The notes beneath the pieces are model-generated. The model was not told where the DNA came from, searched no databases, and saw only the letters and a list, made by a program, of their open reading frames with translations. Position numbers and translations under genes: made by a program. This document shows positions 8,601 through 26,032 of a stretch of 32,000 nucleotides of DNA, one piece after another. Position 1 is the first letter of the stretch. Every line of letters begins with the position of its first letter. The DNA comes from Planctomycetales bacterium (GTDB taxonomy: Bacteria > 4484-113 > JAFGCY01), in contig CP060262.1 of the NCBI GenBank assembly GCA_022646745.1, positions 3,690,001-3,722,000 on the forward strand. The letters are read 5' to 3'.

Positions 8601-8995
8601 TGTCCCATCAGGTACAGCTGCTGGCAAACCAGCTTGCCATTTTCACTGAGCAACCAGATACTGCATCGATCAAGTGATAGAGTGCGAGCAACCGTCCGGC
8701 AGATCTGGCGGAAGGCTTGTTCCACCTTGCCTTCAGTAACAGCATTGCCAGTGACAATCTCGGAATAGGCCTCACGCAATATACGTGCGTGCGCGTCCCT
8801 TTTGTGATCGCTCGCGCTGTTGTATGTTTCCTGTGAGTCTGACACCGCTTCCTGAATTCCCGGCCCGCTGGAATGAATTGATTGATTAAGTCCTGAAGTA
8901 TCGGACTGGTCCAGTAGAATCCGCAATTGGTTCAATGTTTGCGGGGAGAGTAGACCCGACAGATTCGACTTCCGGTATGAATACCTTATCTTCAA
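5648..8995 (-). CDS. Fused sensor kinase-response regulator: GAF-PAS-GAF-PAS-HisKA_3-HATPase_c-REC-LuxR/NarL-type HTH in one polypeptide
   Basis: NarX-type H-box ERERRRLASSLHDGIGHSL has its His codon at 6926-6928. ATPase motifs are NAVKHS, DDGVGF and GLYSINERM. The receiver is RVLLVDDQ...IVLMDIDMPEMDG (Asp codon 6128-6130, REC about 5935-6290). The LuxR HTH is LTERELEILRMVMRGEASKSIAIQLDISIRTVETHRRNIMKKLG (about 5651-5836). No hydrophobic transmembrane stretch. The 5' end is uncertain: the longest ORF starts at TTG 8995 without a clear SD, and the first in-frame ATG lies inside the first GAF domain. Confidence 0.9.
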   Translation of the reverse strand: MKIRYSYRKSNLSGLLSPQTLNQLRILLDQSDTSGLNQSIHSSGPGIQEAVSDSQETYNSASDHKRDAHARILREAYSEIVTGNAVTEGKVEQAFRQICRTVARTLSLDRCSIWLLSENGKLVCQQLYLMGQDQFAEGGIYDSAAIPQYLGYLRAEMVLETADAANDPRLEELKDSYIDGLNIGAMLDSAISLDGELLGVICCESIGRCRNWLGEEIFFMRALADQAALTMSNRVRLEAIEKIRRNDLFFHDLFEDSPLGITIRDQDDRLLVFNRAWRQIWKLDDDYIAQLMGRGAGQVESKWPSFADYRQEDVARIREIQRNGGSYVIPELRTLNRPEGAAKWVSQQVYISKDGDGGTWRQIGITEDITERKQAQQMLEQLASSLNAATGREFFRILTQRLCQSLGVSHSLICQISKDDRGMVETISVCQDGTQLENISYALEGTPCASVIGGRPCHIENGVQRQFPHDELLRQMGVDSYMGIPLNSSQGQPLGLMAILGREAIASPDVARNFLEVFSNRAAAELERLQAEQELSASEERFRIAMTIMNEGMVMLDAEGRISYVNQVLASLIGLPRNRLEGRPAEDIVAHESQDIYAEQRERRRSGGAGNYEGMLLCANGDSIPVRVNATPLFSGDGDFLGSIAIVTDLRSKRREEQAVREHREEMRRITAELALSEERERRRLASSLHDGIGHSLSSLAILLQELSSSLPDGGGAKLEQGLRITREAIDSSRGIVFELSPPMLHEMGLLPTLRWLAEHTHKTYGIPVSVIDNEVAAPLQEEIRILLFQAVRELLFNAVKHSKASHVVITVDGHENGVRLGVSDDGVGFDFNELLTMRSQTGSYGLYSINERMNHVGGQLEINARPGQGASFFLNAPLRAANRQQVEVAKPAPQGQTAGTGTTRVLLVDDQQLIRQGVRSILSRDPGIEVVGEAENGRHALEQARRLRPDIVLMDIDMPEMDGIAATAEIRRTMPETRVVALSMHEDIQVVGEMLQAGARGYLLKNHVEHDLVNAIHSVSDNISFLSAQVAERVVNDYIAEAAGRQQLSLNVLTERELEILRMVMRGEASKSIAIQLDISIRTVETHRRNIMKKLGVNSLPELIRLAIQEGIEI

Positions 8996-9024
8996 ACAAA
9001 TCAGATATTTCGCTTTTAAGCTCC

Positions 9025-9054
9025 ATTTTACGAAATCAAGGCATGCAATGATAA
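9025..9054 (-). promoter_or_regulatory. Candidate sigma70-type promoter for the sensor-regulator gene (-35 TTATCA, 18-nt spacer, -10 TAAAAT on the minus strand)
   Basis: On the plus strand, TGATAA is at 9049-9054 and ATTTTA at 9025-9030. It sits in a 35%-GC island about 30 nt upstream of TTG 8995. It assumes E. coli-like promoter consensus, which is unverified for this organism. Confidence 0.25.
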
Positions 9055-9287
9055 TCAGCTCTGAATGGTTGATTTCGTTTGATTGGATTGGTTGGAATGC
9101 TTGAATTTTTCATCATCTTCCAGCGCCATGGATTGACAAGTTTCGATGGGCCGCTTGCCTAGCCTAGTTCCTCCACACCAAATTCGAAGACCGGCGCAAT
9201 TACCCAGCTATGCCCGTTTTGCCGACCTGCTCGTCTCGCTGTTCCTGCCGCCTGAGACTTCACAGAAATACCCGTGAGTGTCACAAT

Positions 9288-9318
9288 AGGCAGCGGGCGC
9301 TGCCTGGCTGGTGCAGCC
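9288..9318 (+). promoter_or_regulatory. Two adjacent GC-rich hairpins in the leader of the PTS operon
   Basis: AGGCAGCG-GG-CGCTGCCT (9288-9305) is immediately followed by GGCTG-GTG-CAGCC (9306-9318), ending about 30 nt before ATG 9350. Function unknown. Confidence 0.25.
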
Positions 9319-9349
9319 GTCCATCCATACCAGGTCGGTGGGAGCACCA

Positions 9350-10465
9350 ATGTCTGACAGTCCTGTAACCGAAAGCCTCAAGAAGCTGCGCCAGTACCTG
9401 CTGACCGGCGTTTCCTATGCAATCCCATTCGTGGCAGCCGGCGGTATCCTGATCGCGCTGGCCCTGGCATTTGCCCCGAAGGGTGCAAACAACGCCCCGG
9501 ACCCTTCAGGCAGCCAGGTTCTGAGCACGATGCTCACCATCGGAGTGGCGGCCTTCTCACTGCTGCTGCCGATCCTCGGCGGATACATCTCATATGCGAT
9601 CGCCGGCCGGCCCGGACTTGTGCCAGGCTTCGTCGGCGGCTTCCTCTGCAACCACATCCCGGTGCAGAACCCCGTTGAGGGTGGCCCGACTGAGGTCAGC
9701 ACTGGCTTCCTCGGCGCACTGGTGATCGGCCTGCTGGCCGGCTGGATCGTCAACCAGATCAAGAAGATTCCCGCGGGGAAGATCCTCAAGCCGATCATGC
9801 CGATCCTGATCATCCCGATCCTCTCATCGGTGTTCGTCGGCCTGCTGGTGCTGATGGTGATCGGCAACCCGATCGCCGACATGATGCTCTCGCTGGGTAA
9901 CTGGCTGGAAACGATGGGCACCGGCAACCAGGTAGTGCTGGCGATGATCCTCGGCGCGATGATCGCGTTTGACATGGGCGGGCCGGTCAACAAGGCTGCG
10001 TTCTTCTTCGGTCTCGGCATGATCCAGCAGGAGAACTACGCGATCATGGGCGCCGTGGCAGCCGCGATCTGCACCCCGCCGCTCGGCATGGGCCTGGCCA
10101 CGATGCTGCAGAAGAAGCTCTGGAAGGAAGAGGAGCGCGAGGCCGGCATCGCCGGGCTGGCAATGGGCATGATCGGCATCACGGAAGGAGCGATCCCATT
10201 CGCCGCGGCAGATCCACTCAAGGTGATCCCCTCGATCATCGTCGGCTCGATGGTGGCATCCACCATCGCGATGCTCAGTGGCGTGGGAGACCATGCCCCG
10301 CATGGCGGCCCGATCGTGATTCCCGTAGTTGACAACAAGATCATGTACGTGGTGGCGATCATCGTCGGCACCTTCGTGACGGCAATGATGATCAACGCGC
10401 TGAAGACCATCTCGCAGCGCAATGCGAAGCAGGACGAGGAACAGGCCGCTTCTGCGGCCGGCTAG
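9350..10465 (+). CDS. PTS fructose-family EIIC permease component
   Basis: ATG 9350 is preceded by GGTGGGAG. MSDSPVTESLKKLRQYLLTGVSYAIPFVAAGGILIAL is a typical N-terminus of fructose-type IIC. The protein is polytopic and hydrophobic throughout, with GITEGAIPF near the C-terminus. Stop is TAG 10463-10465. Confidence 0.93.
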   Translation: MSDSPVTESLKKLRQYLLTGVSYAIPFVAAGGILIALALAFAPKGANNAPDPSGSQVLSTMLTIGVAAFSLLLPILGGYISYAIAGRPGLVPGFVGGFLCNHIPVQNPVEGGPTEVSTGFLGALVIGLLAGWIVNQIKKIPAGKILKPIMPILIIPILSSVFVGLLVLMVIGNPIADMMLSLGNWLETMGTGNQVVLAMILGAMIAFDMGGPVNKAAFFFGLGMIQQENYAIMGAVAAAICTPPLGMGLATMLQKKLWKEEEREAGIAGLAMGMIGITEGAIPFAAADPLKVIPSIIVGSMVASTIAMLSGVGDHAPHGGPIVIPVVDNKIMYVVAIIVGTFVTAMMINALKTISQRNAKQDEEQAASAAG

Positions 10466-10483: not shown

Positions 10484-10783
10484 TTGAAGATAGTGGCGGT
10501 GACGGCTTGCCCGACGGGCATTGCCCATACATACATGGCTGCCGAGCAGCTCGAGAAGACCGGACGTGAGCTGGGACATGAGGTGAAGGTGGAGACCCAG
10601 GGGGCAATGGGGATTGAGAACGAACTGACTGCGGCTGAGATCGCGGCCGCCGAGCTGGTGATCCTCGCCGTTGACATCGAGATCGAGCAGCGTGAGCGCT
10701 TCGATGGCAAGCGCATTATCGAGGTCCCGGCCCAGCTGGCCATCAAGGACCCGAAGTCGATCTACGCCAGGCTGGACGGCTGA
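10484..10783 (+). CDS. PTS fructose-family EIIB component
   Basis: TTG start at 10484 lies 6 nt after AAGGAGG (10471-10477). MKIVAVTACPTGIAHTYMAAE carries the phospho-Cys motif, with the Cys codon at 10508-10510. Stop is TGA 10781-10783. Confidence 0.93.
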   Translation: MKIVAVTACPTGIAHTYMAAEQLEKTGRELGHEVKVETQGAMGIENELTAAEIAAAELVILAVDIEIEQRERFDGKRIIEVPAQLAIKDPKSIYARLDG

Positions 10784-10790
10784 ACCGTCC

Positions 10791-13313
10791 ATGCCGCTTG
10801 AGTTCCGCTTCAGCTGCCCGTTGCCAAACGGACTGCATGCGCGCCCGGCCAGCATCCTCGCTGAGCTGGCAACACGTTTCAATGCGGACATCCGGCTGTT
10901 GAACGAACGCAACAACAACTCCGCGGATGTGGCCAGCGTGCTGGACCTGGTCGCCGCCGGGGTAATGCACACCGACATCTGCCTGCTCAGGGTGGATGGC
11001 CGCGACTCGCAGCCGGCTTACAACGCCCTCGTGGAGTTCATCACATCAAGCCTGGCCGACTGTGATACGCCCTTGCCTGAAGCCAATGGCAATATGGGAG
11101 GTGGCCAGCTGCCGCATGTCCTGCGTGGCCAGGTCGACAACTGGCTGGGCGGACTGGCGGCTTCCAGCGGAATTGCAATCGCCAATGCAGCGCGCAGCAG
11201 CGGCATGAAACTGCCGGCGGGTTTCAGCCTGCCCGCAAGCCTCGGCGAGGAAGCTGAGCTGGCCGCCTATGAAAAGGCCAGCGCAGCCGTGCAACAGCAC
11301 CATGAGGAGCAGCTTGAGCGCTGTATCGGGATGGCGGAAGTCGAGATCCAGCGCGCCCTGCTCAGCCTGGCCCGTGACCGCAGCCTGCATGACAGCGTGC
11401 GCCAACGCATCAGTGAGAAAGGCGACAGTGCTGCACAGGCCGTTGCCTGGGCCATCCGCAGCTACTCGGAGAAACTGACTGCATCCGGCAGCGTATACCT
11501 GCAGGAGCGGCGCGGTGACCTGGAGGATCTCGGCATTCAGCTGCTCGAGGAGCTGACGGGCCAGAACCTCCATGGACATGAACTCGTGCTGACGGAGCCA
11601 AGCATCGTCTGCGCCGCGAGCCTGCCGACAAGCACCATGCTGGCGTTGGACAAGAAATTATTGAAGGGGATTGTGCTGGGCGAGAGTGGATTGACATCGC
11701 ATACCGTGATCCTGGCCCGCTCTCACGGTATTCCCGTCGTGGCTGGGATCAGCGACCAGAGCCAACTTGCCAACGGAATGCCGCTGTACATAGATGGCAA
11801 CCGTGGGGTTGTGGTGCTGGATCCTCCTGATGCAGTCCAGCGTTATGTAGAACAGGAAACCAAGCTGGAATCCCAGCTCAGAAAAGGCAGGAATGCTGCA
11901 GCCTCGCTATCTGGGAAGACAGCCGACGGACGCGCCGTGGAAATCGCTGCCAATGTGGCAGCTCCGGACGAACTTGCTGCCGCCCTTGCCTCCGGGGCTG
12001 AAGGTGTCGGCCTGTTCCGGACTGAGATGTTGTTCGCCGCCTCCGCCAGCATGCCCGGCGAGGACGAGCAGGCCAGGATCTACGCCGAAATGGCTGTTGC
12101 AATGAAGGGTCGCCGCCTGATCATCCGTACGGTGGACATCGGCGGTGACAAGCCCCTGCCATGGCTGCCGATGCCGCATGAGGAGAACCCCTTCCTCGGA
12201 GTGCGTGGGATCCGGCTCAGCCAGCGCTATCCCGAAATGATGAAGACCCAGCTGCGCGCCATCCTGCGCGCCAGTACGAGCGGTGAAATCTGGGTGATGG
12301 CACCGATGCTCGCAAATGTTGCCGAAGCGCGCTGGCTGCGGGAAATTCATGATGCAGCGCGTGCTGAACTGATTGCAGAGGGATGTCCCGTCAGCGATTC
12401 GGTCCGGCTCGGCTGCATGCTGGAAGTCCCGGCAGCCGCCCTGCAGGTCCCTGCGCTGTCCGCATACTGCGACTTCTTCAGCATCGGCAGCAATGACCTG
12501 GCCCAGTACAGCCTGGCAGTGGATCGGGGCAACCGCGACGTAGCCGCCATCCATGATGAGCTGCATCCATCCCTGCTGCGCCTGATGAAGATTGCCTGTG
12601 ATGACGCACGGGCCAGCTCACGCTGGATCGGTATATGCGGGGAATTCGCTGCCAGGCCACTGCACGCGCCGTTCCTGGCCGGGCTGGGATTCGATGAACT
12701 CAGCATGTCGGCTCCGGCCATCCCGGCTGCCAAGCAGGCCCTGGCTGCATGCAGCTTGGAGCAGGGCCGTGAATTGCTTGACAGGTGCATCGCGGCGGAG
12801 GATGGCAATGCCGTACGGCAGATCCTGCATGCAGCATCCGGCAGCACTGAAGCGCCCATGATAGCCCCGGCGATAGTCAATCCGCAGGGCAAGGCATGCA
12901 GCAAGTCTGAGGCGATCCGTGAGCTGTGCGGGATGCTGCTGTTGGATGGACGCACGGCGGACATTGACGGCATTGAAGACGACGTCTGGGCCCGTGAGGA
13001 AACATATTCCACTGGGCTCGGCCATGGGATTGCGATCCCACACTGCAAGACGGAGCATGCCGGATCAGCCAGCCTGGCACTGCTCAGGCTGCCCGAAGCA
13101 GTCGAATGGGGCAGCCTTGACAATGCCCCGGTGGATACCGTGCTGCTGCTGGCGATGCCTGCTGCAGAGGAAGGCAACCGCCACCTGAAGGTGTTTGCCC
13201 GCCTGGCACGACGCCTGATGAATGAGGACTTCCGCAGCGGCCTGCGGGCCGCGGAGACCGCTGATAACATTGTGCAGTTCCTGCAGTCCGAACTGCGGGA
13301 AAACGAGGAGTGA
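10791..13313 (+). CDS. Multiphosphoryl transfer protein: HPr - Enzyme I (PEP-protein phosphotransferase) - EIIA(Fru/Ntr-type) fusion
   Basis: ATG 10791 lies 7 nt after the EIIB stop. The ORF-track start at 10671 overlaps EIIB and encodes S/R-rich junk. The HPr motif is NGLHARPAS (His codon 10836-10838). EI motifs are GLTSHTVILARSHGIPVV (His codon 10700-range corrected to 11700-11702), GVGLFRTE, SIGSNDLAQY and ICGEFAA. The EIIA motif is GHGIAIPHCK (His codon 13041-13043). Confidence 0.93.
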   Translation: MPLEFRFSCPLPNGLHARPASILAELATRFNADIRLLNERNNNSADVASVLDLVAAGVMHTDICLLRVDGRDSQPAYNALVEFITSSLADCDTPLPEANGNMGGGQLPHVLRGQVDNWLGGLAASSGIAIANAARSSGMKLPAGFSLPASLGEEAELAAYEKASAAVQQHHEEQLERCIGMAEVEIQRALLSLARDRSLHDSVRQRISEKGDSAAQAVAWAIRSYSEKLTASGSVYLQERRGDLEDLGIQLLEELTGQNLHGHELVLTEPSIVCAASLPTSTMLALDKKLLKGIVLGESGLTSHTVILARSHGIPVVAGISDQSQLANGMPLYIDGNRGVVVLDPPDAVQRYVEQETKLESQLRKGRNAAASLSGKTADGRAVEIAANVAAPDELAAALASGAEGVGLFRTEMLFAASASMPGEDEQARIYAEMAVAMKGRRLIIRTVDIGGDKPLPWLPMPHEENPFLGVRGIRLSQRYPEMMKTQLRAILRASTSGEIWVMAPMLANVAEARWLREIHDAARAELIAEGCPVSDSVRLGCMLEVPAAALQVPALSAYCDFFSIGSNDLAQYSLAVDRGNRDVAAIHDELHPSLLRLMKIACDDARASSRWIGICGEFAARPLHAPFLAGLGFDELSMSAPAIPAAKQALAACSLEQGRELLDRCIAAEDGNAVRQILHAASGSTEAPMIAPAIVNPQGKACSKSEAIRELCGMLLLDGRTADIDGIEDDVWAREETYSTGLGHGIAIPHCKTEHAGSASLALLRLPEAVEWGSLDNAPVDTVLLLAMPAAEEGNRHLKVFARLARRLMNEDFRSGLRAAETADNIVQFLQSELRENEE

Positions 13314-13315
13314 GG

Positions 13316-16300
13316 ATGGACCAGATGCGTTTGATGACCGCAGCACTGCTGTGCTGCACCTGCCTGGCACTGCCGCATGCAGGCCGCTGCCAGAATGAAG
13401 CCCCCGCCCCACAGGATTACGAGATGATTGACCTATCCGATGGCAACACGCTTTACGTTGTGGGCTATGCCCACCTCGACACCCAGTGGCGCTGGTCCTA
13501 CCAGGAGACCATCCGAGACTACCTGAAGGACACCCTGAAGGACAACTTCGCGCTGTTCGAGAAGTACCCGGAATACATCTTCAACTTCAGCGGTTCGCGC
13601 CGCTACGAGATGATGAAGGAGTACTTCCCCGAGGACTATGAGCGCATGAAGGGCTACGTTGCCAGCGGCAACTGGTTCCCCTGCGGCTCCAGCGTCGATG
13701 AGTGCGATGTCAACGTGCCGTCCTGCGAATCACTTGTGCGCCAGGTGCTGTATGGCAACCGCTTCTTCCGCGACGAATTCGGCAAGACCAGCCAGGAGTT
13801 CATCCTGCCGGACTGCTTCGGCTTCCCGGCCAACATGCCAGGCGTGCTTTCACACTGCGGCATCCGCGGCTTCTCCACCCAGAAGCTGACCTGGGGCAGC
13901 GCCGTAGGCATCCCCTTCAACGTCGGTGTCTGGGAAGGGCTTGACGGCAGCAGCGTAGTGCTGGCGGCCTTCAACCCCGGTGCATACGTCGGCCGCGTGG
14001 ACCAGGACCTGTCCAACAGCCAGGAGTGGCTGGACCGCATCCAGGCCAACGGTGATGCGAGTGGCGTCTACGCCGACTACCATTACTTCGGCACCGGTGA
14101 CATGGGCGGCGCGCCGACCACCGGTTCAATGGAATGGATCCGCAAGAGCCTGAATGGCGATGGCCCGGTACGCGTCGTCAGCAGTACGGCGGAGCAGATG
14201 TTCCTCGACATCCAGAACTCCTCCATCCCCAGCCTGCCGCACTACAAGGGCGACCTGCTGCTGACCCAGCACAGCGCCGGCAGCATCACCAGCCAGGCCT
14301 ACATGAAACGCTGGAACCACATGAACGAGCTGTTGGCCAGCGGCGCGGAGTCCGCTGCCGTCAGTGCCGGTCTCAGGCACGGTGCCAGCTATCCCTACCG
14401 CAAGATCAAGGACGCCTGGTACCTCACGCTTGGCAGCCAGATGCATGACATCCTGCCCGGCACCTCGATCCCCTTCGCCTATGACCTCGCCTACAACGAC
14501 GAAGTGCTCGCAATGAACATGTTCTCCGACGTGCTGGCAACGGCCGTCGGGCAGGTCAGCAGCACACTCGATACCGATGTCGATGGCATCCCGCTGGTTG
14601 TCTACAACCCGCTCGGACGGGGCCGCAACAGCGTGGTGCAGTGCAGTGTGGACTTCATCACTGATGCCCCGGAGGACATCGTGGTGCACGGCGCTGACGG
14701 CAGCATGATGGCAGCACAGGTGCTCTCCCGCGATGGCAGCACAGCCAGCATCGCCTTCCGCGCCCCGCTCGAGCCCTTTGGCTTCAGCGTGTTCGACGTG
14801 CGTGCCGGTTCATCTGAGGCTGGCAGCGCAGTATCAGCCTCCGGCAACACCATCGAGAATGAACGCTACCGCGTCAGTGTCAACCAGGCGGGAGACGTTG
14901 CCAGCATCTTCGACAAGTCCATCAACCGCGAACTGCTCAGCGAGCCCTTGCGCCTGGCCTTCACGCATGACGCCCCCGGCTACTGGCCGGCCTGGAACAT
15001 CGACTGGGCTGACCAGTCACAGGCCCCCTTCGCCTACGTCGACGGCCCTGCGAAGATCAGCATCGCCGAGGACGGTCCGGTGCGCGTGGCCCTGCGCATT
15101 GAGCGCGAGGCCCAGGGTTCGACCTTCAGCCAGCTGGTCAGCCTGAGCGCCGGCGGCCAGCGGGTTGAGTTCCATGACAGCATTGACTGGCGCACCGCCA
15201 ACTGCAACCTCAAGGCCAGCTTCCCGCTCGCCGCCTCCAACCCGAATGCGACCTACAGCTGGGAATGCGGCACGATTGAGCGTGGCAACAATGACGAGAA
15301 GAAGTATGAGGTGCCCTGCCACCAGTGGTTCGACCTGACCGACAGCTCGGGCGAATTCGGTGCCACCATCCTCTGTCCATTCAAGTACGGCTCCGACAAG
15401 CCGGATGACAACACGATGCGCCTGACCTTGCTGCGTACCCCCGGCGTTCACGGCCCTGACTATTCCGACCAGGCCAGCCAGGACTGGGGCCGGCATGAGA
15501 TCAGCTACGGCATCGCCGGCCACAGCGGTGACTGGCGCAGCGAGCACAGCTACTGGCAGGCCTACGGCCTCGAGCAGCCTGCTATCGCCTTCCAGGCTGG
15601 CAAGCACGGCGGCAACGGGCGCAGCTACTCCCTGTGCAGCGTTGACAGCCCCTCCGTCAGGGTGCTGGCCTGCAAGCGTGCCGAGGATTCCGATGAGCTG
15701 ATCCTGCGCGTGGTTGAGCTGGATGGCCAGGACCAGTCCGCCGTCCGGATCAACTTCGGCCAGTCCGTGCTCGGCGTGCGCGAGGTGGATGGCCAGGAGT
15801 ATGGCGATGCCGAGGTTTCACATGATGACAACGGATTCGGCACATCCTTCTCTCCGTACCAGATCCGCAGCTTCGCGGTGAGCCTGCAGGCTAACCCCCA
15901 CATCCAGATGATGGAGTACGCCCCGGTCAGCCTGCCCTTCAACCGCTCAGTTGCCACCAATAACGGTGAGGCCGCAGTCGGCGGCTTTGATTCCGGTGGC
16001 CGCAGCCTGCCGGCTGAGATGCTGCCGGACAGCATTGACGATGCCGGTGTGCGCTTCGAATTCGCGCCTGCCGGCAATGGCCAGCCGAACTCCGTCACCT
16101 GTCAGGGCCAGAGCATCGAGCTGCCGAAAGGCAACTTCAACCGCATCTACCTCGTGGCGGCTGCCTCGCCGGCTGACCAAACCGCTGACTTCATCGTGGA
16201 TGGCACGGCCCACAGCCTGAAGATCCAGGACTGGGGCGGCTACGTCGGCCAGTGGGATACCCGAGTATGGAAGGGCGCGGTGCCTGACATCGCCTTCCGC

Positions 16301-16633
16301 TGGTACAACGAACTGGAGAAGATCAACAAAGGCTACACCCGCCGCGATCCCGTCGCCTGGTACAGCTCGCACCGCCACAAGCCGCACGGCCAGGATTACT
16401 ACTATGAGTACGCCTACCTCTACCGCTATGCCATTGATGTGCCGGAGGGCAGCTCGACGCTGACCCTGCCGGACAATGAGGCGATCCAGGTGATGGCTGT
16501 CACCGTCGCCAACTCCGGCGATGGCGAGTTCCGCGCCGCCCAGCCGCTGTATGACACACTGGCTGGCAACACGGACGTGACAGAGTTCCCGGCAGTGGAG
16601 TACATTCCGCTGCCCCCGAAGGAAGACCAGTAA
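13316..16633 (+). CDS. GH38 alpha-mannosidase, long form with extra C-terminal beta-sandwich-like domain; possibly exported
   Basis: GAGGAG (13305-13310) precedes ATG 13316, which starts 2 nt after the upstream TGA. GH38 metal-site motif YVVGYAHLDTQWRW has His at 13472-13474 and Asp at 13478-13480. The nucleophile motif is ILPDCFGF (Asp 13811-13813). The N-terminal 25-30 aa (MDQMRLMTAALLCCTCLALPHAG) look like a signal peptide. An alternative internal start at ATG 13424 would give a cytoplasmic enzyme. Stop is TAA 16631-16633. Confidence 0.9.
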   Translation: MDQMRLMTAALLCCTCLALPHAGRCQNEAPAPQDYEMIDLSDGNTLYVVGYAHLDTQWRWSYQETIRDYLKDTLKDNFALFEKYPEYIFNFSGSRRYEMMKEYFPEDYERMKGYVASGNWFPCGSSVDECDVNVPSCESLVRQVLYGNRFFRDEFGKTSQEFILPDCFGFPANMPGVLSHCGIRGFSTQKLTWGSAVGIPFNVGVWEGLDGSSVVLAAFNPGAYVGRVDQDLSNSQEWLDRIQANGDASGVYADYHYFGTGDMGGAPTTGSMEWIRKSLNGDGPVRVVSSTAEQMFLDIQNSSIPSLPHYKGDLLLTQHSAGSITSQAYMKRWNHMNELLASGAESAAVSAGLRHGASYPYRKIKDAWYLTLGSQMHDILPGTSIPFAYDLAYNDEVLAMNMFSDVLATAVGQVSSTLDTDVDGIPLVVYNPLGRGRNSVVQCSVDFITDAPEDIVVHGADGSMMAAQVLSRDGSTASIAFRAPLEPFGFSVFDVRAGSSEAGSAVSASGNTIENERYRVSVNQAGDVASIFDKSINRELLSEPLRLAFTHDAPGYWPAWNIDWADQSQAPFAYVDGPAKISIAEDGPVRVALRIEREAQGSTFSQLVSLSAGGQRVEFHDSIDWRTANCNLKASFPLAASNPNATYSWECGTIERGNNDEKKYEVPCHQWFDLTDSSGEFGATILCPFKYGSDKPDDNTMRLTLLRTPGVHGPDYSDQASQDWGRHEISYGIAGHSGDWRSEHSYWQAYGLEQPAIAFQAGKHGGNGRSYSLCSVDSPSVRVLACKRAEDSDELILRVVELDGQDQSAVRINFGQSVLGVREVDGQEYGDAEVSHDDNGFGTSFSPYQIRSFAVSLQANPHIQMMEYAPVSLPFNRSVATNNGEAAVGGFDSGGRSLPAEMLPDSIDDAGVRFEFAPAGNGQPNSVTCQGQSIELPKGNFNRIYLVAAASPADQTADFIVDGTAHSLKIQDWGGYVGQWDTRVWKGAVPDIAFRWYNELEKINKGYTRRDPVAWYSSHRHKPHGQDYYYEYAYLYRYAIDVPEGSSTLTLPDNEAIQVMAVTVANSGDGEFRAAQPLYDTLAGNTDVTEFPAVEYIPLPPKEDQ

Positions 16634-16635
16634 GC

Positions 16636-17262
16636 TCAGGCCCCGGGCCTGAACAGGTAGTCCGGCGACGGCGCGTACTCAATGTATGCCGCCGTCGCCA
16701 GTGCTGCCTCCCGGCTGACACAGCGCTCCACCAGCCGCAGTGCAAGGTCAATCCCGGCGGTCACCCCGGCCCCGGTGACAATGCTGCCGTCGTCAACCAC
16801 CCTTCTGTCCGTGCGCACATTCGCTGCCGGGCATTCCCGCTGCAGCTGCTCGCAGAACATCCAGTGCGTAGTGCAGTCCCGCCCGTCCAGCAGGCCTGCA
16901 CTGCCAAGCAGCAACGCTCCCGTGCAGACTGAGACCATGGTGCATCCAGCAGCTGCCAATCCGGAGATATGGTCCAGCACCCGCTGATCCGTCTTGAGGC
17001 GGCGCGTCCCGATCCCTCCCGGGATGATGAACAGCTCCGGCACAGGTGCATCCGCCAGCAGGATGTCAGCGCTGAAGCGCACGTTGCCATTCGTGACAAG
17101 CTCGATCGCATCCGCTGACACCAGGCTCAGCCTGAAGGGAGACTGTTTGGCGGCGCGCTGGGACTCATCGGCACGACAGGCCGTCAGCACTTCATGCGGG
17201 CCGCAGAAGTCCAGCAGTTCCACCCCGTCGAATACGAGGATCTGGCAGTTGATTTCGCTCAT
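16636..17262 (-). CDS. DJ-1/PfpI (class I glutamine-amidotransferase-like) family protein
   Basis: ILVFDGVELLDFCGPHEVL is followed by the nucleophile elbow MVSVCTGALLLGSAGLL (Cys codon 16924-16926) and then TTHW. Start ATG 17262 lies 27 nt downstream of the preceding lipoprotein gene's stop. Stop TGA (tca 16636-16638) is 2 nt from the convergent GH38 stop. Confidence 0.88.
   Translation of the reverse strand: MSEINCQILVFDGVELLDFCGPHEVLTACRADESQRAAKQSPFRLSLVSADAIELVTNGNVRFSADILLADAPVPELFIIPGGIGTRRLKTDQRVLDHISGLAAAGCTMVSVCTGALLLGSAGLLDGRDCTTHWMFCEQLQRECPAANVRTDRRVVDDGSIVTGAGVTAGIDLALRLVERCVSREAALATAAYIEYAPSPDYLFRPGA
16637..16651. terminator. GC-rich hairpin CAGGCCC-c-GGGCCTG at the stop-to-stop junction of convergent GH38 and DJ-1 genes
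   Basis: The inverted repeat is read directly. It lies inside the last codons of the DJ-1 gene, 4 nt past the GH38 stop. No U-tract on either strand. Confidence 0.2.
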
Positions 17263-17289
17263 CCGGGGATTATCCCAGAGGATGCCAGC

Positions 17290-19119
17290 TTATGCCGGCG
17301 GCTCGAAGTCCTTCAGGAAGCCCTGCAGCAGGATGTCCGGGATGCCATCGTAGATCCGTATCTGCGGGTCGTCATCCATGCCGATGTGGTGCAGCTCAAG
17401 CCGGTAGGTGTTGTCCATCGCAGTCTGCAGGATGTAGTTGTAGCCATTGGACGGGCTCGTCGTGCGGTCACCGATGAAGGTGAATGTCGGACTGAGTGTC
17501 AGCGCCAGGTCCTCGCTGTTGCCGCGGATCGGGTTGCCATACAGCTTGATGTGGATCTCAGGCCGCACATATGCCGTGAAGCTGAAGTTCCCACTCTCGC
17601 TCGTGGTGCCCGGCTCATTGGCAAAGCTCTCCACCAGTGTGTACTCGTTCACATCCTCGATGCCCTGCGAGTTGAAGATACCGCCTGTGCGGATGTTGTC
17701 ATAGGATGCGAAGCAGTTCGCCGAGTAGAGCCCGTTGAGCTGTCCCTCACCGCGGATGCCGACATACAGGTCGTACACCAGTGTCATTGTGACCGGTACA
17801 TCATTCTGGTAGGCAGTGAAGTCGAAGCTGAAGCCGGACATCTTGTGTTCAAAGAAGTCCAGCTGCTCCGGCGTCGGCGGGAAAGGTCCATCCCAGCCCT
17901 CAGCCGACAACTCGACCAGCATCCCGAGGTCAAGCGGGCCACCCATGGCCAGGCCGCGCAGGTAGGTCACCCCACCGTACTGGTTGTAGTTGACAGCCAC
18001 GTCAGCGTTCGGCAGGAAGGTCACGCTGCCCTCCTGGATCTCGGCATACAGCCCGTTGAATTCCGTCAACACCTGCCCACTGAGGTTGATGGTGTACAGT
18101 TCGACCGGCACCTGGCTGATGTCATCCAGCGCCTCGCCGAGCCCGCCCTGCAGGAAAACGTCCGTCAGGATGCCCGGCTCGGTTGCCAGCATCAGCTGGC
18201 TGCCCTGCTCCTCCACCGCCACCACGCGCTGCAGGTAACCGCCCTGCTCCGCACCGACAACGACGTCGCCGGGTGCGATTGGGTTCTCCATCCCGACCGG
18301 CAGTTCCAGCACGAAGTCGTCGCCATCACGCGACACGAAGCTCGGGCCATCCGGCTGGCCGATGATGCGGGTCTCGTCGCTGATCAGGAAGTCCACCGCC
18401 AGGTTGCTGGGCGTGCCACGGTTGCCCTCGCCGTCCAGCGGCACCACGCGGTAGGCCTCATGCTGCACAGCCGGCAGGTAGTGGAACATGCGGATGCCGG
18501 ACAGCATCGGCTGGCCGGCGGTGAATTCAACCTCGTCGAGCTCGGTGAACGGGCCATCTGGACCAGGACCTCCTTCGATCAGGTAGCTGGCAACACGGTG
18601 GTTGAAGTTGACACCGATCGGGGTGATGTCGGAGATGTTGACCTCACCGTTGCGGTCGCCGTCGATGAAGCGCGAGACCGCTTTCCAGTCCGGCGTACTG
18701 CTGTCCTTGCCGAAGTGCACACCGATCGGCGTGATGTCGGAGATGGCAACCAGTCCGTTGAGGTCGTAGTCGCCGACATTGCGGTAGTTCCACTGGATGC
18801 TCTGCTCACCGTTGTCACTGATGCCGCTCGTGAGGTCGTCAATCACATTCGCCTCGCCGATCGGCGGGGTTGAGGTAAAACGCTCCGCCGGAGCTTCCAG
18901 CAGCATGCTGCGCAGGCTTTCCTTCAGCTGGGCGAAAGTCTCGGCATCCGCGCCGGCAGGCACTGGCAGTGCATCCAGCTCAGCCAGCGCTGCATTGAGG
19001 CTCTGGGATCCATCACCGGCGGGCACCACAGCAGCCAGCTCGGAATTGCCGGACTGGCCCCCGCAGGAGCCTAGCAGCAGGATTGACAAAATGATCAGCC
19101 AGGGAACCAGGCAACGCAT
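17290..19119 (-). CDS. Lipoprotein with dockerin-type double Ca-loop module, FN3/Ig-like segment and an unassigned ~400-aa beta-rich C-terminal domain
   Basis: ATG 19119 lies 5 nt after GGTGGAGG. The GTG at 19134 in the ORF track falls inside that SD. Signal peptide plus lipobox: MRCLVPWLIILSILLLGS/C. The two EF-hand-like loops are DYDLNGLVAISD-ITPIGV and DGDRNGEVNISD-ITPIGV. It is a paralog of the upstream gene over this block. No catalytic motif recognised. Confidence 0.85.
   Translation of the reverse strand: MRCLVPWLIILSILLLGSCGGQSGNSELAAVVPAGDGSQSLNAALAELDALPVPAGADAETFAQLKESLRSMLLEAPAERFTSTPPIGEANVIDDLTSGISDNGEQSIQWNYRNVGDYDLNGLVAISDITPIGVHFGKDSSTPDWKAVSRFIDGDRNGEVNISDITPIGVNFNHRVASYLIEGGPGPDGPFTELDEVEFTAGQPMLSGIRMFHYLPAVQHEAYRVVPLDGEGNRGTPSNLAVDFLISDETRIIGQPDGPSFVSRDGDDFVLELPVGMENPIAPGDVVVGAEQGGYLQRVVAVEEQGSQLMLATEPGILTDVFLQGGLGEALDDISQVPVELYTINLSGQVLTEFNGLYAEIQEGSVTFLPNADVAVNYNQYGGVTYLRGLAMGGPLDLGMLVELSAEGWDGPFPPTPEQLDFFEHKMSGFSFDFTAYQNDVPVTMTLVYDLYVGIRGEGQLNGLYSANCFASYDNIRTGGIFNSQGIEDVNEYTLVESFANEPGTTSESGNFSFTAYVRPEIHIKLYGNPIRGNSEDLALTLSPTFTFIGDRTTSPSNGYNYILQTAMDNTYRLELHHIGMDDDPQIRIYDGIPDILLQGFLKDFEPPA
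18598..18780 (-). other. Dockerin-type module (two EF-hand-like Ca loops plus helices) within CDS 17290-19119
   Basis: GDYDLNGLVAISDITPIGVHFGK ... DGDRNGEVNISDITPIGVNFNH. Both loops fit D-x-D-x-N-G-x-V-x-I-x-D, which has the same spacing as type-I dockerin repeats. Confidence 0.7.
18611..18745 (-). repeat. Near-identical 27-nt direct repeat (26/27) 108 nt apart, encoding ISDITPIGV in both dockerin segments
   Basis: 18611-18637 is acaccgatcggGgtgatgtcggagatg. 18719-18745 is acaccgatcggCgtgatgtcggagatg. Confidence 0.9.
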
Positions 19120-19160
19120 ATCAGCCTCCACCAACCAATCTCAGATTACATCCAGTCACG

Positions 19161-21392
19161 TCAGGGACGCCAGTAGGCAAGCTCGCCCGCTGCGTTGAAC
19201 TCCCCGCTCAGCAGGTCAGACACGCTGATGCTGCTGGTGCGCAGGAAGGCACAGCTCGGATTGCCACCACCGGCACTGCTCCAGCTGTGGCCACGCCCGG
19301 AACTGCCGGAGTAGTAGCCGCTGTTCGTATAGAAGTTCGTGGCCCCGCGCTTCATGTACTGCGAGTCCGTGTCGAGCGAGCCGTCCTCCGGCTGCTGCGT
19401 GCTGATGTTGACATCGACGCTGCCACCGACCTGGTTGTACAGCAGCTCGTCCGGTTTCGCCCACATAACCTCTGATGCCAGGTTGAGCGTCAACACGAGC
19501 TTGCTAGGCGGGAAGCCACCACCGAGGGATACTCCGAAGGTGCTTTCATAGGCCCGCTGGCTGACCCAGCTCGTGCCGTTGTACTCCAGCGAATCGACAT
19601 CCACCAGCAGTGACAGGGTAACCGGGTCAAGCGTCGGGATGCTGATTGTGTAGTCACGCGCCGATGTGATTGCCAGCTGCGGGGTGTTGTCAGCGCGGAA
19701 GCCGAGGTCAACCACCAGCGGGTTGTCAGGATCAGGCAGCTCACTGACGTTCCAGCTGCCGCTGCTGAGCCGGCCCTGCTCCATCACGAAGTCCAGCAGC
19801 AGCGTGCTGGAAGTGTCAATCGTGCCATGCGTGAAGATCAGCCAGGGGTCGGCACCACCGGGATCAAAGCGGAAACTCAGCCCACCTACCGTGTCGGATC
19901 CACCGTAAACCGGGATCGTGTTCCAGCTGCCTTCCGCATCGCGGGAGGAGTACTGCACGCTGGCACCGGCGCCGGCGTAGGCATGAGCCACGCCAAGGTT
20001 GCCAGCATCGTCCATGTCCACGGATACCATCGTCGGGGCGCCGTTGCCCGTGCCGACATCCTGTGAGGAGAGGAGGCTCCAGTCCGCCAGTGCGTAGCGG
20101 CGTTCCACCACCTTCAGGCCCTCGATGCTGTAGGCAATCACCAGCATTTCCGGCGGGTTGCCACCTTCAGCGGGCAGCAGCAGCAGGTGCGGGTTGGCAT
20201 AATTGCCACCATCGCCGATGTCCTGTGTGGTCCAGCCGGCCTCCCCGAAGTAGCTCATGAGGAGCGGTGAACCGGCTCCACCGAGGGTGGTGTAGACCAC
20301 CACAGGTGCCCCTGACTGGCTCAGGGCAGGCACCGCGGGCAATGCCACGAGCGCGGGAGCCGCCACCAGTTCAGTGCTGATCACCTGCTCGCCTGAGGCC
20401 GGCACGCGGTACTTGACCAGCGCCAGCGCGGCATACTCCACCGCATTACTCGGGTTGCCCTCTTCTCCACTGGCGCTGTCAAATGGCCGGACATAGAGGA
20501 AGCGGCCGGGCACCAGTGCCGCCAGTGAAATGTCCAAGCTGAATACACGGCGGGTGTTGGGTTCCATCGTGCTGTCGGCGAACTGGACTTCCTGCAAAAG
20601 CTCGCTTGCGGCCGTCTCAGGGTCCGGACCGTCCGCCAAATAGACGCGGTAGCCACTTACCGTATTGAGGAAGTTGATCCCCAGCGGCGTGATGTCCGCC
20701 AGGTTGACTTCAGTATTGCCATCTCCATCCAGCACCGAATCGAATTCATCCATCTCGCCATCAGTGGTGCTCTGGCCCAGGCGCAGGGCCAGCGGGGTCA
20801 AGTCGGCGATGTTCGCTTCGCTGTTCTGGTCATAGTCAGCGCGGTTGGCGTAGCTCCAGTTGAGCTTCAGGCTGTCAACACCACTTTCATCTGAAACCAG
20901 GTCAGCCACGAGGCCGCTGTCGCCTTTTGGCACCGCACTCGCAGAGCGCGCCTCAAGACCGGACGGCACAAGCGTCGCACTGAGCAGCTCGCCCTGGGGC
21001 ACGCTATCACCTTCAGGCATGACCATGCCAAGCGCCAGCACTCCAGGCTTGTCACTCACCAGCAGGTTGATGAATCCGCTGTCGGCCAGCTGGCTGGCCC
21101 GTCCGACCTGCCAGGCTGGATCGAAATGCAGCTCCACAAGCAGGCTTTCTCCGTCCAGGCGCTGTGGATTGGTCAGGCTCAGGGACCATTGCTCTCCCTC
21201 CTGCCACAGTTCCAACCGAAGGTCACTGGCGGCCAGGCCACTGGAACCGGCCACCCGCAGCTCAATCTCAGGCTGCTGGGACTGCAGGTCCAGGTTGGTG
21301 CCGCCTGAGCAGGAAGCCAGCAGGGCCAGTGCTGCCAGGGGGAGGAATCTTGCAAGGCGTGTGGTGACGCCGGTGAATTTCGTGTTAAGCAT
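19161..21392 (-). CDS. Lipoprotein with cohesin-like module, dockerin-type double Ca-loop module, FN3/Ig-like segment and propeller-like C-terminal repeats
   Basis: Start set at ATG 21392 (MLNTKFTGVTTRLARFLPLAALALLAS/CSGG, a classical lipobox). The ORF-track start at 21620 adds 76 non-signal residues. The dockerin loops are DYDQNSEANIAD-LTPLAL and DGDGNTEVNLAD-ITPLGI. No clear SD upstream, so the start is moderately uncertain. Stop is TGA (tca 19161-19163). Confidence 0.82.
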   Translation of the reverse strand: MLNTKFTGVTTRLARFLPLAALALLASCSGGTNLDLQSQQPEIELRVAGSSGLAASDLRLELWQEGEQWSLSLTNPQRLDGESLLVELHFDPAWQVGRASQLADSGFINLLVSDKPGVLALGMVMPEGDSVPQGELLSATLVPSGLEARSASAVPKGDSGLVADLVSDESGVDSLKLNWSYANRADYDQNSEANIADLTPLALRLGQSTTDGEMDEFDSVLDGDGNTEVNLADITPLGINFLNTVSGYRVYLADGPDPETAASELLQEVQFADSTMEPNTRRVFSLDISLAALVPGRFLYVRPFDSASGEEGNPSNAVEYAALALVKYRVPASGEQVISTELVAAPALVALPAVPALSQSGAPVVVYTTLGGAGSPLLMSYFGEAGWTTQDIGDGGNYANPHLLLLPAEGGNPPEMLVIAYSIEGLKVVERRYALADWSLLSSQDVGTGNGAPTMVSVDMDDAGNLGVAHAYAGAGASVQYSSRDAEGSWNTIPVYGGSDTVGGLSFRFDPGGADPWLIFTHGTIDTSSTLLLDFVMEQGRLSSGSWNVSELPDPDNPLVVDLGFRADNTPQLAITSARDYTISIPTLDPVTLSLLVDVDSLEYNGTSWVSQRAYESTFGVSLGGGFPPSKLVLTLNLASEVMWAKPDELLYNQVGGSVDVNISTQQPEDGSLDTDSQYMKRGATNFYTNSGYYSGSSGRGHSWSSAGGGNPSCAFLRTSSISVSDLLSGEFNAAGELAYWRP
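20664..20840 (-). other. Dockerin-type module within CDS 19161-21392
   Basis: ADYDQNSEANIADLTPLALRLGQ ... DGDGNTEVNLADITPLGINFLN. Same 12-residue acidic loop spacing as in the paralog. Confidence 0.65.
20964..21272 (-). other. Cohesin-like beta-sandwich module (tentative) within CDS 19161-21392
   Basis: Residues about 41-143: IELRVAGSSG...LLVELHFDPAWQVGRASQLADSGFINLLVSDKPGVLALGMVMPEGDSVPQGELLSATLVP. The pattern of alternating hydrophobics and the (L)x(F)DP...G.(L)x(L)...G.L..(L) landmarks resemble cohesin modules. Judged by eye only. Confidence 0.35.
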
Positions 21393-21446: not shown

Positions 21447-21482
21447 GGCCGGACTTACAGGTAAGTGCAGACGGAGACTGAC

Positions 21483-21827
21483 ATGCAGGAAAAGACATTC
21501 CGGCTGGTTGTGGATCTTAACGATCTGAGCCGGCTGAATGCCAAGATCGACCTTGAAGAGATCGGTGACGGCGAACTTGACTTCGAACTCAGCGCAAGGC
21601 TGGTGAACCCGCACGGCCATATCCTGACCGGCGTGCTCGACGTGGAAAGCCCGTTGCCCGGCTCAGAGAACAAGGCCACCCGCTTCGAGATCCAGCCGGG
21701 TGAATGGCAGTTCATGGGTTACTGGAAGCTCTCCAGTGCGCGTGATGAGCTGATCATCAACGCCGACCTCGAGCCGCGCATGCCAAATGGCGTCGTGACC
21801 TTCGAGTTCCACGCCAAGCCCCACTAA
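21483..21827 (+). CDS. Hypothetical small cytoplasmic protein (114 aa), no recognisable family
   Basis: ATG 21483 lies 6 nt after GGAG (ACGGAGACTGAC-ATG). Balanced, non-repetitive amino-acid composition (MQEKTFRLVVDLNDLSRLNAKIDLEEIGDGELDFELSARL...), unlike the antisense GC artefacts. No signal peptide. Divergent from the lipoprotein operon. Confidence 0.6.
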   Translation: MQEKTFRLVVDLNDLSRLNAKIDLEEIGDGELDFELSARLVNPHGHILTGVLDVESPLPGSENKATRFEIQPGEWQFMGYWKLSSARDELIINADLEPRMPNGVVTFEFHAKPH

Positions 21828-24611: not shown

Positions 24612-25889
24612 CTATGGCTGGAAGAGGTACTGGTACAGCGCGCCATCGTATTCGAGCATAACCAACCTGTCGCGGTCCATCCAGGCATTCCAGTACATGT
24701 CTCCCTGTGCTGCTTCAGGAAAACTGATCTCAAGCTCACGCCCCGGAATGACAATCTCCGTGTCCAGCAGGATCACTTCCTGCTGGTGCTCACCCAATGT
24801 ATATAAGCGATCAAATGCAACATAGTCTCCGTCGGGACTTGAAACCGGGTACAGCCGGTAGCCAGGCAAACCGGTTCCCTCTGCTCCGTAGACTAGATTT
24901 AGCTCTCCATTACGCAGGCAGATGCCCTGCTGCCAGTAGCAGCCTTCAGGGTAGCCCGTTGCCATCCTGGATTGTACATTCAGCTCCTCGTCAAACCGGA
25001 TCAGCTCTTCTTCATGCCACAACCAGAGCATTCCATCCTGCCGGACCATCATGTCGGTCGGATAACCCCAAGAGCCACAGGCCATGCTCCATGATTCCCT
25101 GTACCAGTACTTCGGTGAGTACAATTCGCCGATCTGATGCCCCACCAACGGATGCGCCAGCTCAATCGATTCATCATGCAGCCATGCCTGTGCCAACACA
25201 TTGAGTTCTTCATCAAGCTTCAGGAGCATATCCCGACTGGTTGCCAATTCCTTCAATAGCAGGAAAAGATGATCACCGTCGAACTGCAGGTCAACTACCC
25301 CACCAGGCAAGATCAGCTGTGAGAACTGCATGCTGGGTACATTCTGCTGTGGTTCACTGTCGACGAAAAAAGAAAAGCCGCCTTCCACTTCACGGACCAG
25401 TTGCACCACAGGGGAGAGGGAGTTGAAGATCATCAGCTTGCCATTCCAGCTGATGCAGTCCAGCAGGCTGTTGTCATTCACGGCACAGCGAAACTTCAAT
25501 TCCTTTGTTTCCGAATCCATCAGCACAAGGAACGAAGCAGTATCTTGCTCAGCCACGATGAACCATGGCATCCCATCAAGCAGGCCGCTTTGCCTGCTTG
25601 AGCAAAATCTGTCCTCCATTGCCACTTCGGGATCCGAGTAAAGATCCAGTGTCCCCGGCAGCTCCTCCAGCCTGTCTCCGATGATCCGATAGCTGTGCAG
25701 GATGCCCTGCCTGTCCACCACGAACAGATCATCCCCGAGAATGACGGGCACGCTCGCGTACAGCACAGCCCTGGCGGACTCATCCATCTCAATCCGCTGC
25801 ATGCTGGCAATGGAATCTTCCGCATATGAAAGGCCTGCCGGAACCAGCAGCAGCAGCAATCCAAGCAACTTCACAGTCCCTATACCCAT
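24612..25889 (-). CDS. Hypothetical secreted protein with internal beta-repeat character; compositionally atypical (lower GC)
   Basis: Start set at ATG 25889 (MGIGTVKLLGLLLLLVPAGLSYA/EDS, a Sec signal). Protein-like composition. Contains an internal repeat L.(K/R)(L/F)DEELNV. Hand-counted GC of several 60-nt lines is 45-50%, against about 73% in a line of the neighbouring MCP gene. No family recognised. Confidence 0.7.
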   Translation of the reverse strand: MGIGTVKLLGLLLLLVPAGLSYAEDSIASMQRIEMDESARAVLYASVPVILGDDLFVVDRQGILHSYRIIGDRLEELPGTLDLYSDPEVAMEDRFCSSRQSGLLDGMPWFIVAEQDTASFLVLMDSETKELKFRCAVNDNSLLDCISWNGKLMIFNSLSPVVQLVREVEGGFSFFVDSEPQQNVPSMQFSQLILPGGVVDLQFDGDHLFLLLKELATSRDMLLKLDEELNVLAQAWLHDESIELAHPLVGHQIGELYSPKYWYRESWSMACGSWGYPTDMMVRQDGMLWLWHEEELIRFDEELNVQSRMATGYPEGCYWQQGICLRNGELNLVYGAEGTGLPGYRLYPVSSPDGDYVAFDRLYTLGEHQQEVILLDTEIVIPGRELEISFPEAAQGDMYWNAWMDRDRLVMLEYDGALYQYLFQP

Positions 25890-25939
25890 GCCAGTTAATC
25901 GCAGGCAGCCACGATTCCACAAACTACAGTCCCTCCCGG

Positions 25940-25980
25940 AAAAAGTGCAGTCCCCCGCACCGGCAGGGCCGATGCAGGGG
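25940..25980 (-). terminator. Possible intrinsic terminator downstream of the MCP gene
   Basis: The minus strand reads CCCCTGCA-tcggccctgccgg-TGCGGGG-gactgcaC-TTTTT. This is a 7-bp stem with one bulge, and the T5 run starts 8 nt after the stem. The structure is imperfect. Confidence 0.3.
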
Positions 25981-26032
25981 ACATACATGGGGGTCAGTAA
26001 AGCTTGCTAGCTGCGTTGTATCCCCAGAGTCC

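Follow-up and report, generated by a model that had tools for sequence, protein, structure and literature searches.

The pairing of cohesins with dockerins is among the strongest protein–protein interactions known and a widely used engineering tool, and what it does outside cellulosomes is still mostly a matter of conjecture. There is good documentation of non-cellulosomal dockerins and cohesins (Peer et al., 2009, as cited in PMC6461901 and PMC8542988), and cellulosome-like assemblies for the degradation of peptides and polymers have been proposed from the genomes of freshwater Planctomycetes, under the name of planctosome (PMC6461901), and from those of Cloacimonadota, for Ca. Stygibacter (PMC8542988). 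Here we describe two adjacent genes, designated A and B, from contig CP060262.1 (assembly GCA_022646745.1) of a bacterium recorded as "Planctomycetales bacterium", contained in a stretch of 32,000 nucleotides (nt) that was analyzed as a whole and that we call the window. Their products are predicted lipoproteins that carry, close to the lipid anchor, a duplicated calcium-loop module resembling a dockerin. The name of the organism is that given by NCBI to one record; in the species collection, the genome record nearest to it, with 97% identity along gene A, carries the label UBP7 HKST-UBA01, UBP7 being a candidate phylum and its label in GTDB. The isolate name HKST-UBA, together with the UBP7 genomes described there, makes a study of saline activated sludge in Hong Kong (PMC8495973) the likely origin of that record.

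As in the planctosome and in Ca. Stygibacter, dockerin-type modules occur here on peptidases and binding proteins from an uncultured, non-cellulolytic lineage, a Ca2+-dependent surface assembly can be proposed, and a cohesin-like and a dockerin-like module are possibly combined in one protein. However, those systems contain large scaffoldins and cohesins that are recognizable with Pfam or InterPro, whereas the sole candidate here is a small beta-sandwich that scores below threshold; additionally, anchoring here would depend on lipidation instead of LTD, T9SS-CTD or SLH domains, and every cassette continues into an FN3-like domain. A and B are distinct from the known non-cellulosomal dockerin proteins in the N-terminal module with a lipid anchor and the fixed dockerin-like plus FN3 cassette, as well as in a divergent sequence signature, many copies of which escape Pfam, and in forming a conserved two-gene unit whose second member contains an undescribed domain.

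A duplicated calcium-loop module beside the predicted lipid anchor

Proteins A and B start with predicted signal peptides ending in a lipobox (coordinates of all the features are in Table 1) that fits the pattern L-[AS]-[GAS]-C, and the cysteine that would be lipidated is invariant in 13 full-length A-family sequences (alignment A1), while its conservation among 18 B-family sequences (alignment A2) is 90% or higher. We thus predict both to be lipoproteins, in agreement with a preliminary description of this DNA, made from its letters alone, which had noticed the signals LLAS/C and LLGS/C. The alignable block that it had reported in the two proteins extends far beyond chance, since blastp aligned A and B over 173 amino acids with 34% identity (E = 2e-20). 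This block is composed of a WxY strand, a first loop (D-Y-D-x-N-x-x-V-x-I-x-D) that leads into (I/L)TP(I/L), a stretch of around 20 residues, a second loop (D-G-D-x-N-x-E-V-N-x-x-D) that leads into ITP(I/L)G(I/V)NF, and a beta-sandwich. The two acidic loops of 12 residues, also pointed out previously, start at D186 and D222 in A and at D117 and D153 in B, and their Ca-ligand positions are essentially invariant over 41 non-identical homologous blocks: in both loops, every one of the 41 has Asp at positions 1 and 12 and D or N at position 3, 40–41 of them have N or D at position 5, and N prevails at position 9.

The same N-proximal cassette, comprising lipobox, leader, dockerin-like module and FN3, was found in UBP7 relatives, where it precedes heads as diverse as clostripain, subtilase, PKD arrays, PQQ-type propellers and FN3 repeats. 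The blocks from A and B are 39% identical to each other, while each of them is 50–65% identical to blocks from proteins with other C-termini; for this reason, the block is, judging from these sequence relationships, a lineage-wide cassette and not the result of a local duplication. The same values rule out a tandem duplication as the origin of A and B, which had been called paralogous, and in that sense the term does not apply to them. Two kinds of leader precede the module: a helical one with the motif LDALPxPxGxDxxxFxxLKxxL, as in B and also in P0015, P0019, P0043, P0046, and P0050, and a beta-sandwich of around 105–130 residues, as in A. Lipoproteins of 576–1436 amino acids from metagenome loci (L010, L011/L012, L013/L015, and L016/L017) display the order of A, with lipobox, beta-sandwich (LKALYFELxYD), dockerin-like module and FN3, and continue with PKD arrays and/or propellers bearing PAIAY...W repeats. 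Because they have this order, the comparison shows that the predicted architecture of A is one branch of a larger class.

The module shares with type-I dockerins (PF00404, PDB 4fl4) a tandem pair of segments, each some 22 residues long and made up of a loop D1, D/N3, N/D5, N9, D12 and a subsequent helix, as indicated by the composition of the 41 blocks and by a low-confidence model, as well as a total length of around 57 residues, a short linker helix, an extracytoplasmic context, and similarity in hidden Markov model (HMM) and profile comparisons at the family level. Dockerins characteristically have Asp at loop position 12, where canonical EF-hands have Glu. At E ≤ 1, Dockerin_1 matched 33 of the 41 blocks (best, 1e-6) and EF-hand_1 matched 19 (best, 0.002). 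Two relatives exceed the Dockerin_1 gathering cut-off of 22.9 bits, P0014 (34.9 bits), whose match coincides exactly with the stretch aligned to residues 186–240 of A, and P0058 (30.3 bits), and B orthologues reach 13.5–14.8 bits. Likewise, a profile of the 41 blocks (A3) compared to PDB sequences placed at rank 1 the type-I dockerin of a C. thermocellum GH9 protein (4fl4_A, 1.7e-8), aligned along both loop-helix repeats, and also retrieved 4cj0_A (2.1e-7), with both matches spanning profile positions 6–62. In the model of A, a strand (174–180), not a helix, lies before loop 1 and is followed by helices 195–204, 218–221, and 235–241, in the predicted order helix, short linker helix, helix, within a low-confidence region; the strand in this place and this order of helices are likewise characteristic of dockerins.

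The preliminary description had taken the module for a type-I dockerin and had named the lack of a dockerin HMM hit as an outcome contradicting it. Formally, this is the outcome for the window proteins: Pfam and NCBIfam found no family in whole A and B, and Dockerin_1 gave no Pfam match at any listed E-value to either of them, whole or as isolated blocks (the latter searched at E ≤ 10), so that neither attains the gathering cut-off, although homologues do and the profile ranks 4fl4 first. The module also differs from known type-I dockerins, which are C-terminal on a secreted enzyme, in being N-proximal after a lipid anchor, in the conserved D-[IL]-T-P-[IL]-G that places a Pro in the helix, in window copies that fall below all Pfam reporting levels, and in the absence here of plant-cell-wall enzymes and of a known cohesin partner. 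Because of the block-level matches to Dockerin_1, the first rank of 4fl4, Asp at position 12 and the strand before loop 1, we regard the module as being of the dockerin (F-hand) kind, although divergent, with copies in the window that fail the formal Pfam test.

Alternatively, the block could be a calmodulin-like EF-hand pair working as a Ca2+ sensor or switch, with which it shares a pair of 12-residue DxDxN loops at a spacing of about 36 residues and significant sequence matches. Single-sequence searches of PDB retrieved calmodulin first, both with the block of A (phmmer, 4e-6, to C-lobes) and, weakly, with that of B (0.055, versus 0.068 for dockerin 4fl4), and profile A3 matched calmodulins (2.5e-8) nearly as well as the dockerin, EF-hand_1 being also matched by part of the blocks, as indicated above. 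However, the calmodulin alignments run from loop 1 only as far as loop 2, while the one to the dockerin takes in both loop-helix repeats, and among the blocks Pfam matches Dockerin_1 more often and more strongly than EF-hand_1. Additionally, we did not find the helix-loop-helix with a bidentate Glu at position 12 that characterizes EF-hands: the residue is Asp in both loops of every block, no helix enters loop 1, and the module belongs to predicted extracytoplasmic lipoproteins. We thus consider a calmodulin-like pair very unlikely.

The heads of A and B and a candidate receptor

The model of A, with a mean predicted local distance difference test (pLDDT) of 76.6, contains four parts, namely an N-domain, the dockerin-like module, an FN3-like sandwich and a propeller; the model of B is weaker (66.5). 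Both models are consistent with the FN3/Ig-like stretch that had been placed after the loops, and Foldseek matched the domain of B to an FN3 domain of Ihog (2ic2; probability 0.94, target template modelling (TM) score 0.64), with no match to Pfam fn3 in A or B. The C-terminal parts differ, as had also been described. In the model, the head of A has four-stranded blades arranged in a ring; of the 243 PDB entries that Foldseek matched to the whole A model at E ≤ 1e-3, the best 50 are for the most part propellers, and the matches of the head were to bacterial propeller lectins (PLL/PHL), sialidases and DDB1, with E values around 3e-7 and a target TM of at most 0.5. We therefore view it, as modelled, as a generic propeller with no family assignment.

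The head of B (365 residues) is beta-rich and could not be assigned to any family. A scan of 1.84 billion representatives retrieved 82 clusters at E < 1e-3, which share a core of around 285 residues with the motifs GDxxVGxxxGGYLRRV and YxRPE..LYG..GP. In relatives, the core is combined with PKD, Big_1, FGE-sulfatase, CarboxypepD_reg and SLH domains, and this company indicates a putative extracytoplasmic role for it. Neither a profile of the core nor family members found a meaningful relative in Pfam, NCBIfam or PDB, and Foldseek with the B model gave no structural match for the head below E 0.01. Weak Foldseek likenesses of B to aerolysin, MACPF, porins and TULIP involve long beta-hairpins only and were not taken as evidence. 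The preliminary description had recognized no glycosidase domain in either protein, and Pfam finds none in A or B.

The N-terminal beta-sandwich of A deserves attention as a possible cohesin-like domain. Residues 28–321 of A are collinear with proteins of the P0016 and L015 type (30–32% identity, E = 1e-22 to 2e-24), and hhalign related the N-domain of A to those of this group (P = 8e-5). Cohesin (PF00963, gathering cut-off 24.1 bits) was the top Pfam match for five independent N-domains of the P0016/L015 class, with 20.6, 18.0, 14.3, 13.8, and 12.8 bits and in each case along profile positions ~11–105, and hhalign of the group against three CipA cohesins, whose sequences had been checked against 1ANU and 1OHZ, resulted in P values from 7e-4 to 2e-3 and probabilities of 14–27%. 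The modelled N-domain of A has eight strands, while cohesins are nine-strand jelly-rolls; the profile of the A N-domain family (A4) gave no match to PDB sequences at E ≤ 10, and neither did the N-domain of P0017 match any PDB entry. The cohesin likeness of this domain, which is below threshold throughout, is thus a lead, not a result.

Gene A is immediately followed by B in five loci (L001, L002/L003, L004, L006, and L007), which bears out, for these two genes, the conservation of gene order that the preliminary description had proposed to examine. The pair appears in at least three different flanks, with GH38 alpha-mannosidase and phosphotransferase system (PTS) genes in the window, L001 and L002, a quite different context in L006, and a different upstream region in L007. 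Since the flanks differ, these genomic comparisons suggest that the pair is kept together for its own sake. In the most divergent A relative (P0013, from L005), the gene is followed by that of a different FN3-repeat lipoprotein, and there is no B-type gene nearby in the wider P0016/L015 class.

Layout of the locus and neighboring genes

Table 1. Coordinates in the window of genes A, B and C and of the features predicted in them.
Feature	Coordinates	Strand	Remarks
Gene A	19161..21392	(-)	743-amino-acid lipoprotein open reading frame (ORF); stop codon within coordinates; start is the ATG chosen in the preliminary description
A signal peptide and lipobox (LLAS/C28)	21309..21392	(-)	Read from sequence
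A N-terminal 8-strand beta-sandwich (residues 43–143)	20964..21266	(-)	Candidate divergent cohesin-like domain; strands with pLDDT ~80
A dockerin-like module (residues 186–241)	20670..20837	(-)	Loop DYDQNSEANIAD and helix, short linker helix, loop DGDGNTEVNLAD and helix
A FN3/Ig-like beta-sandwich (residues 245–320)	20433..20660	(-)	Model strands 247–304; aligned to the FN3-like domain of B
A beta-propeller head (residues 334–743)	19164..20393	(-)	About seven four-stranded blades; model pLDDT 80–90
B ribosome-binding site	19125..19129	(-)	GGAGG, 5 nt ahead of ATG 19119; read from sequence
Gene B	17290..19119	(-)	609-amino-acid lipoprotein; stop codon within coordinates; start ATG 19119
B signal peptide and lipobox (LLGS/C19)	19063..19119	(-)	Read from sequence
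B helical leader (residues 41–81)	18877..18999	(-)	LDALPxPxGxDxxxFxxLKxxL; helices in the model; motif in other cassette proteins
B dockerin-like module (residues 117–172)	18604..18771	(-)	DYDLNGLVAISD... then DGDRNGEVNISD...
B FN3-like domain (residues 176–244)	18388..18594	(-)	Model strands 178–228
B head (residues 245–609)	17293..18387	(-)	Beta-rich family; motifs GDxxVGxxxGGYLxRV and YxRPE..LYG
Gene C	16636..17262	(-)	208-amino-acid DJ-1/PfpI enzyme; neighbor outside the conserved unit

Three closely spaced coding sequences (CDS) had been described on the minus strand, A, B and a third one, gene C, with gaps of 26 and 27 nt. The three CDS and the 27 nt between B and C hold, but the gap between A and B is of 41 nt because B starts at ATG 19119, which has a GGAGG upstream and gives a product with 100% identity to NCBI H7A35_15020 (P0023); a gap of 26 nt results only from using TTG 19134, with which the ORF would span 17290–19134. 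The product of gene A, which begins MLNTKF...LALLAS/C, is 97% identical to the NCBI hypothetical protein KDL29_13055. A scan for terminators and promoters was uninformative, with no excess of sites over shuffled controls and none in the intergenic gaps.

Gene C had been annotated as a DJ-1/PfpI enzyme, and indeed its product matches Pfam DJ-1_PfpI (PF01965) with 82.9 bits (E = 3e-23, cut-off 26.6) and has the nucleophile-elbow Cys. Its closest solved structure is the Pseudomonas isocyanide hydratase InhA (3non/6ni5), to which it aligns end to end (E = 3e-29), including the nucleophile-elbow Cys (that of VCTG, corresponding to Cys101), the TTHW motif and the equivalent of Asp17. In NCBIfam, the product comes closest to the GATase1-like N-domains of FtrA/GbdR regulators, scoring well under their cut-offs. 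The product has no signal peptide and looks like a cytoplasmic, isocyanide-hydratase-like DJ-1/PfpI enzyme.

The three genes had been interpreted as an operon for a candidate surface assembly system, with the DJ-1 enzyme left unexplained and the gene order to be examined in relatives; taken in full, this model would make the DJ-1/PfpI enzyme a functional part of the dockerin-mediated surface complex. The common strand, the short gap and the lack of a terminator-like site between B and C, in a scan that was itself uninformative, are in line with this model. However, gene C was found only in L004, from the same species (97% identical), and is absent beside A–B in L001, L002/L003, L006, and L007; moreover, the lack of a signal peptide and the end-to-end alignment with a cytoplasmic isocyanide hydratase fit poorly with a surface complex. 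Because it is missing from every syntenic relative but L004 and its product looks cytoplasmic, gene C is, as far as these loci indicate, a species-specific neighbor and not a component of the A–B unit, which accounts for the enzyme that had seemed unexplained; synteny thus rules out the DJ-1 enzyme as part of the system, and the three-gene model retains hardly any probability. At the position of gene C, L006 carries a gene for a 270-amino-acid predicted membrane protein (8255–9067) with no family match, whose start overlaps the stop of B.

The GH38 alpha-mannosidase gene (13310–16633, plus strand) is convergent with gene C, with 2 nt between their stops. The N-termini of its product and of its orthologues from L001 and L002 resemble signal peptides, and for this reason the enzyme is probably exported, despite the adjoining PTS genes (9311–10465 and 10671–13313), which encode an EIIC and an 880-amino-acid HPr-EI-EIIA fusion. 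Upstream of this cluster there are genes on the minus strand for two large hybrid sensor proteins (3017–5431 and 5648–8995), with the organizations PAS-HisKA-HATPase-receiver and GAF-PAS-HisKA_3-HATPase-receiver-LuxR, which may regulate it.

Divergent from gene A there is a 120-amino-acid ORF (21465–21827, plus strand), found in the same position in L001 (70% identity) and L004 (100%) and not upstream of A in L002, and assigned to no family. An 805-amino-acid ORF (29520–31937, minus strand) has FN3-like and PKD-like segments and the C-terminal repeats PAI.Y...L.Y..S....W, being another propeller by its appearance, and has no significant sequence similarity to the propeller of A. Two ORFs of 813 (556–2997, plus strand) and 458 amino acids (24612–25988, minus strand) have N-termini resembling signal peptides and no Pfam match at E ≤ 0.001. 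Finally, long antisense ORFs that are spurious abound in this DNA (61% G+C), and the 559-amino-acid ORF opposite gene B (17194–18873, plus strand) is among them.

Docking, stalk or glycan capture

We propose that A and B would be exported, lipid-anchored at their N-terminal Cys and, as we infer, exposed at the surface. Near the anchor, the cassette would place a short WxY beta-strand, the 57-residue duplicated loop-helix module, predicted to bind Ca2+ in the manner of dockerins (F-hand type), and an FN3-like spacer, and would present a variable head: a propeller of around seven blades and lectin/sialidase-like fold in A, which has the additional N-terminal beta-sandwich, and the undescribed beta-rich family in B. 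The Ca2+-loaded modules may then be protein–protein docking elements holding together the cassette-bearing envelope proteins. The best candidate receptor is the beta-sandwich of A and of its architectural relatives; in that case, A would be a lipid-anchored mini-scaffold for B. We assign a probability of roughly 0.45 to this docking reading, in which the modules would bind Ca2+, dock, and assemble the envelope proteins, with the A-type beta-sandwich as candidate receptor. A more elaborate version postulates a UBP7-type miniature cohesin–dockerin system on lipoproteins, where the A-type N-domain would be a small divergent cohesin binding many modules (from B, subtilases, clostripains and PKD proteins) in membrane-tethered heteromeric complexes, with an A–B core of scaffold and cargo and an activity of its own for the head of B; we hold it to be unlikely.

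Several points weigh against docking, besides the absence of Dockerin_1 matches in A and B and the sub-threshold status of the cohesin lead. In both models, confidence is lowest over the dockerin-like regions (pLDDT 40–60), and a Pro three residues past each loop (D-[IL]-T-P) is atypical of canonical dockerin helices. Lipid-anchored proteins need no dockerin for cell attachment, and many Dockerin_1 proteins occur in genomes without cohesins. The N-domain of A itself gave no match to, and did not reach the cut-off of, Pfam Cohesin, hhalign of the alignment that includes A (A4) with the three CipA cohesins gave a probability of 0.4%, and no bona fide cohesin was found, in a search that did not reach the rest of the genome. 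By the main rival explanation, the double Ca2+-loop module would have no partner and would form a calcium-stiffened stalk that, with the FN3 domain, spaces the heads from the membrane, A and B being neighbors because their heads would act on a common substrate. The module is indeed always situated between the lipid anchor or leader and the FN3 spacer, whatever the head, in proteins that the lipid already attaches; no cohesin exceeds the threshold, and Dockerin_1 domains without cohesins are common, as far as Peer et al. (2009) is cited for this in PMC6461901 and PMC8542988. Nevertheless, loop positions 10–11 and the following helix, which in dockerins constitute the surface contacting the cohesin, are strongly conserved (I/L-A/S-D-I/L-T-P-I/L-G), beyond the needs of Ca2+ binding, and the module is accompanied by an N-domain in which cohesin-like signals recur. 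We see the stalk as a real but doubtful possibility.

It is also conceivable that A and B are glycan-capturing accessory lipoproteins, similar in role to SusE/F, in the service of the apparently exported GH38 enzyme and the PTS, with the propeller of A as a lectin or glycosidase. The genes for GH38, HPr-EI-EIIA and EIIB/EIIC adjoin A–B in the window, L001 and L002, the GH38 orthologues have N-termini like those of signal peptides, and the propeller resembles fucose-binding propeller lectins and sialidases. However, the GH38 gene would be on a separate transcript because it is convergent to A–B–C, and the A–B pair of L006 lies in a neighborhood lacking GH38 and PTS genes; likewise, the propeller matches are generic (TM ≤ 0.5, ~10% identity), and Pfam detected no carbohydrate-binding or glycosidase family in A or B. 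We judge such a function improbable as an explanation of the pair; a glycan-harvesting role would be compatible with either a docking or a stalk mechanism, and depends on a synteny that not all the loci show. Of the models dealt with above, that of an EF-hand sensor and that of three genes are both unlikely.

Should the module have no partner, what is left would be modular surface lipoproteins of an ordinary sort from an uncultured phylum. Independently of this, the locus flags an undescribed family of extracellular domains, the head of B, with 82 representative clusters, together with a divergent dockerin subfamily that is missed by current Pfam models. With a dockerin-type module beside the lipid anchor on many envelope proteins and a possible minimal cohesin in the partner gene, it also offers a compact and testable case that bears on the function of non-cellulosomal dockerins, that is, whether they serve for assembly or as a calcium-stiffened stalk.

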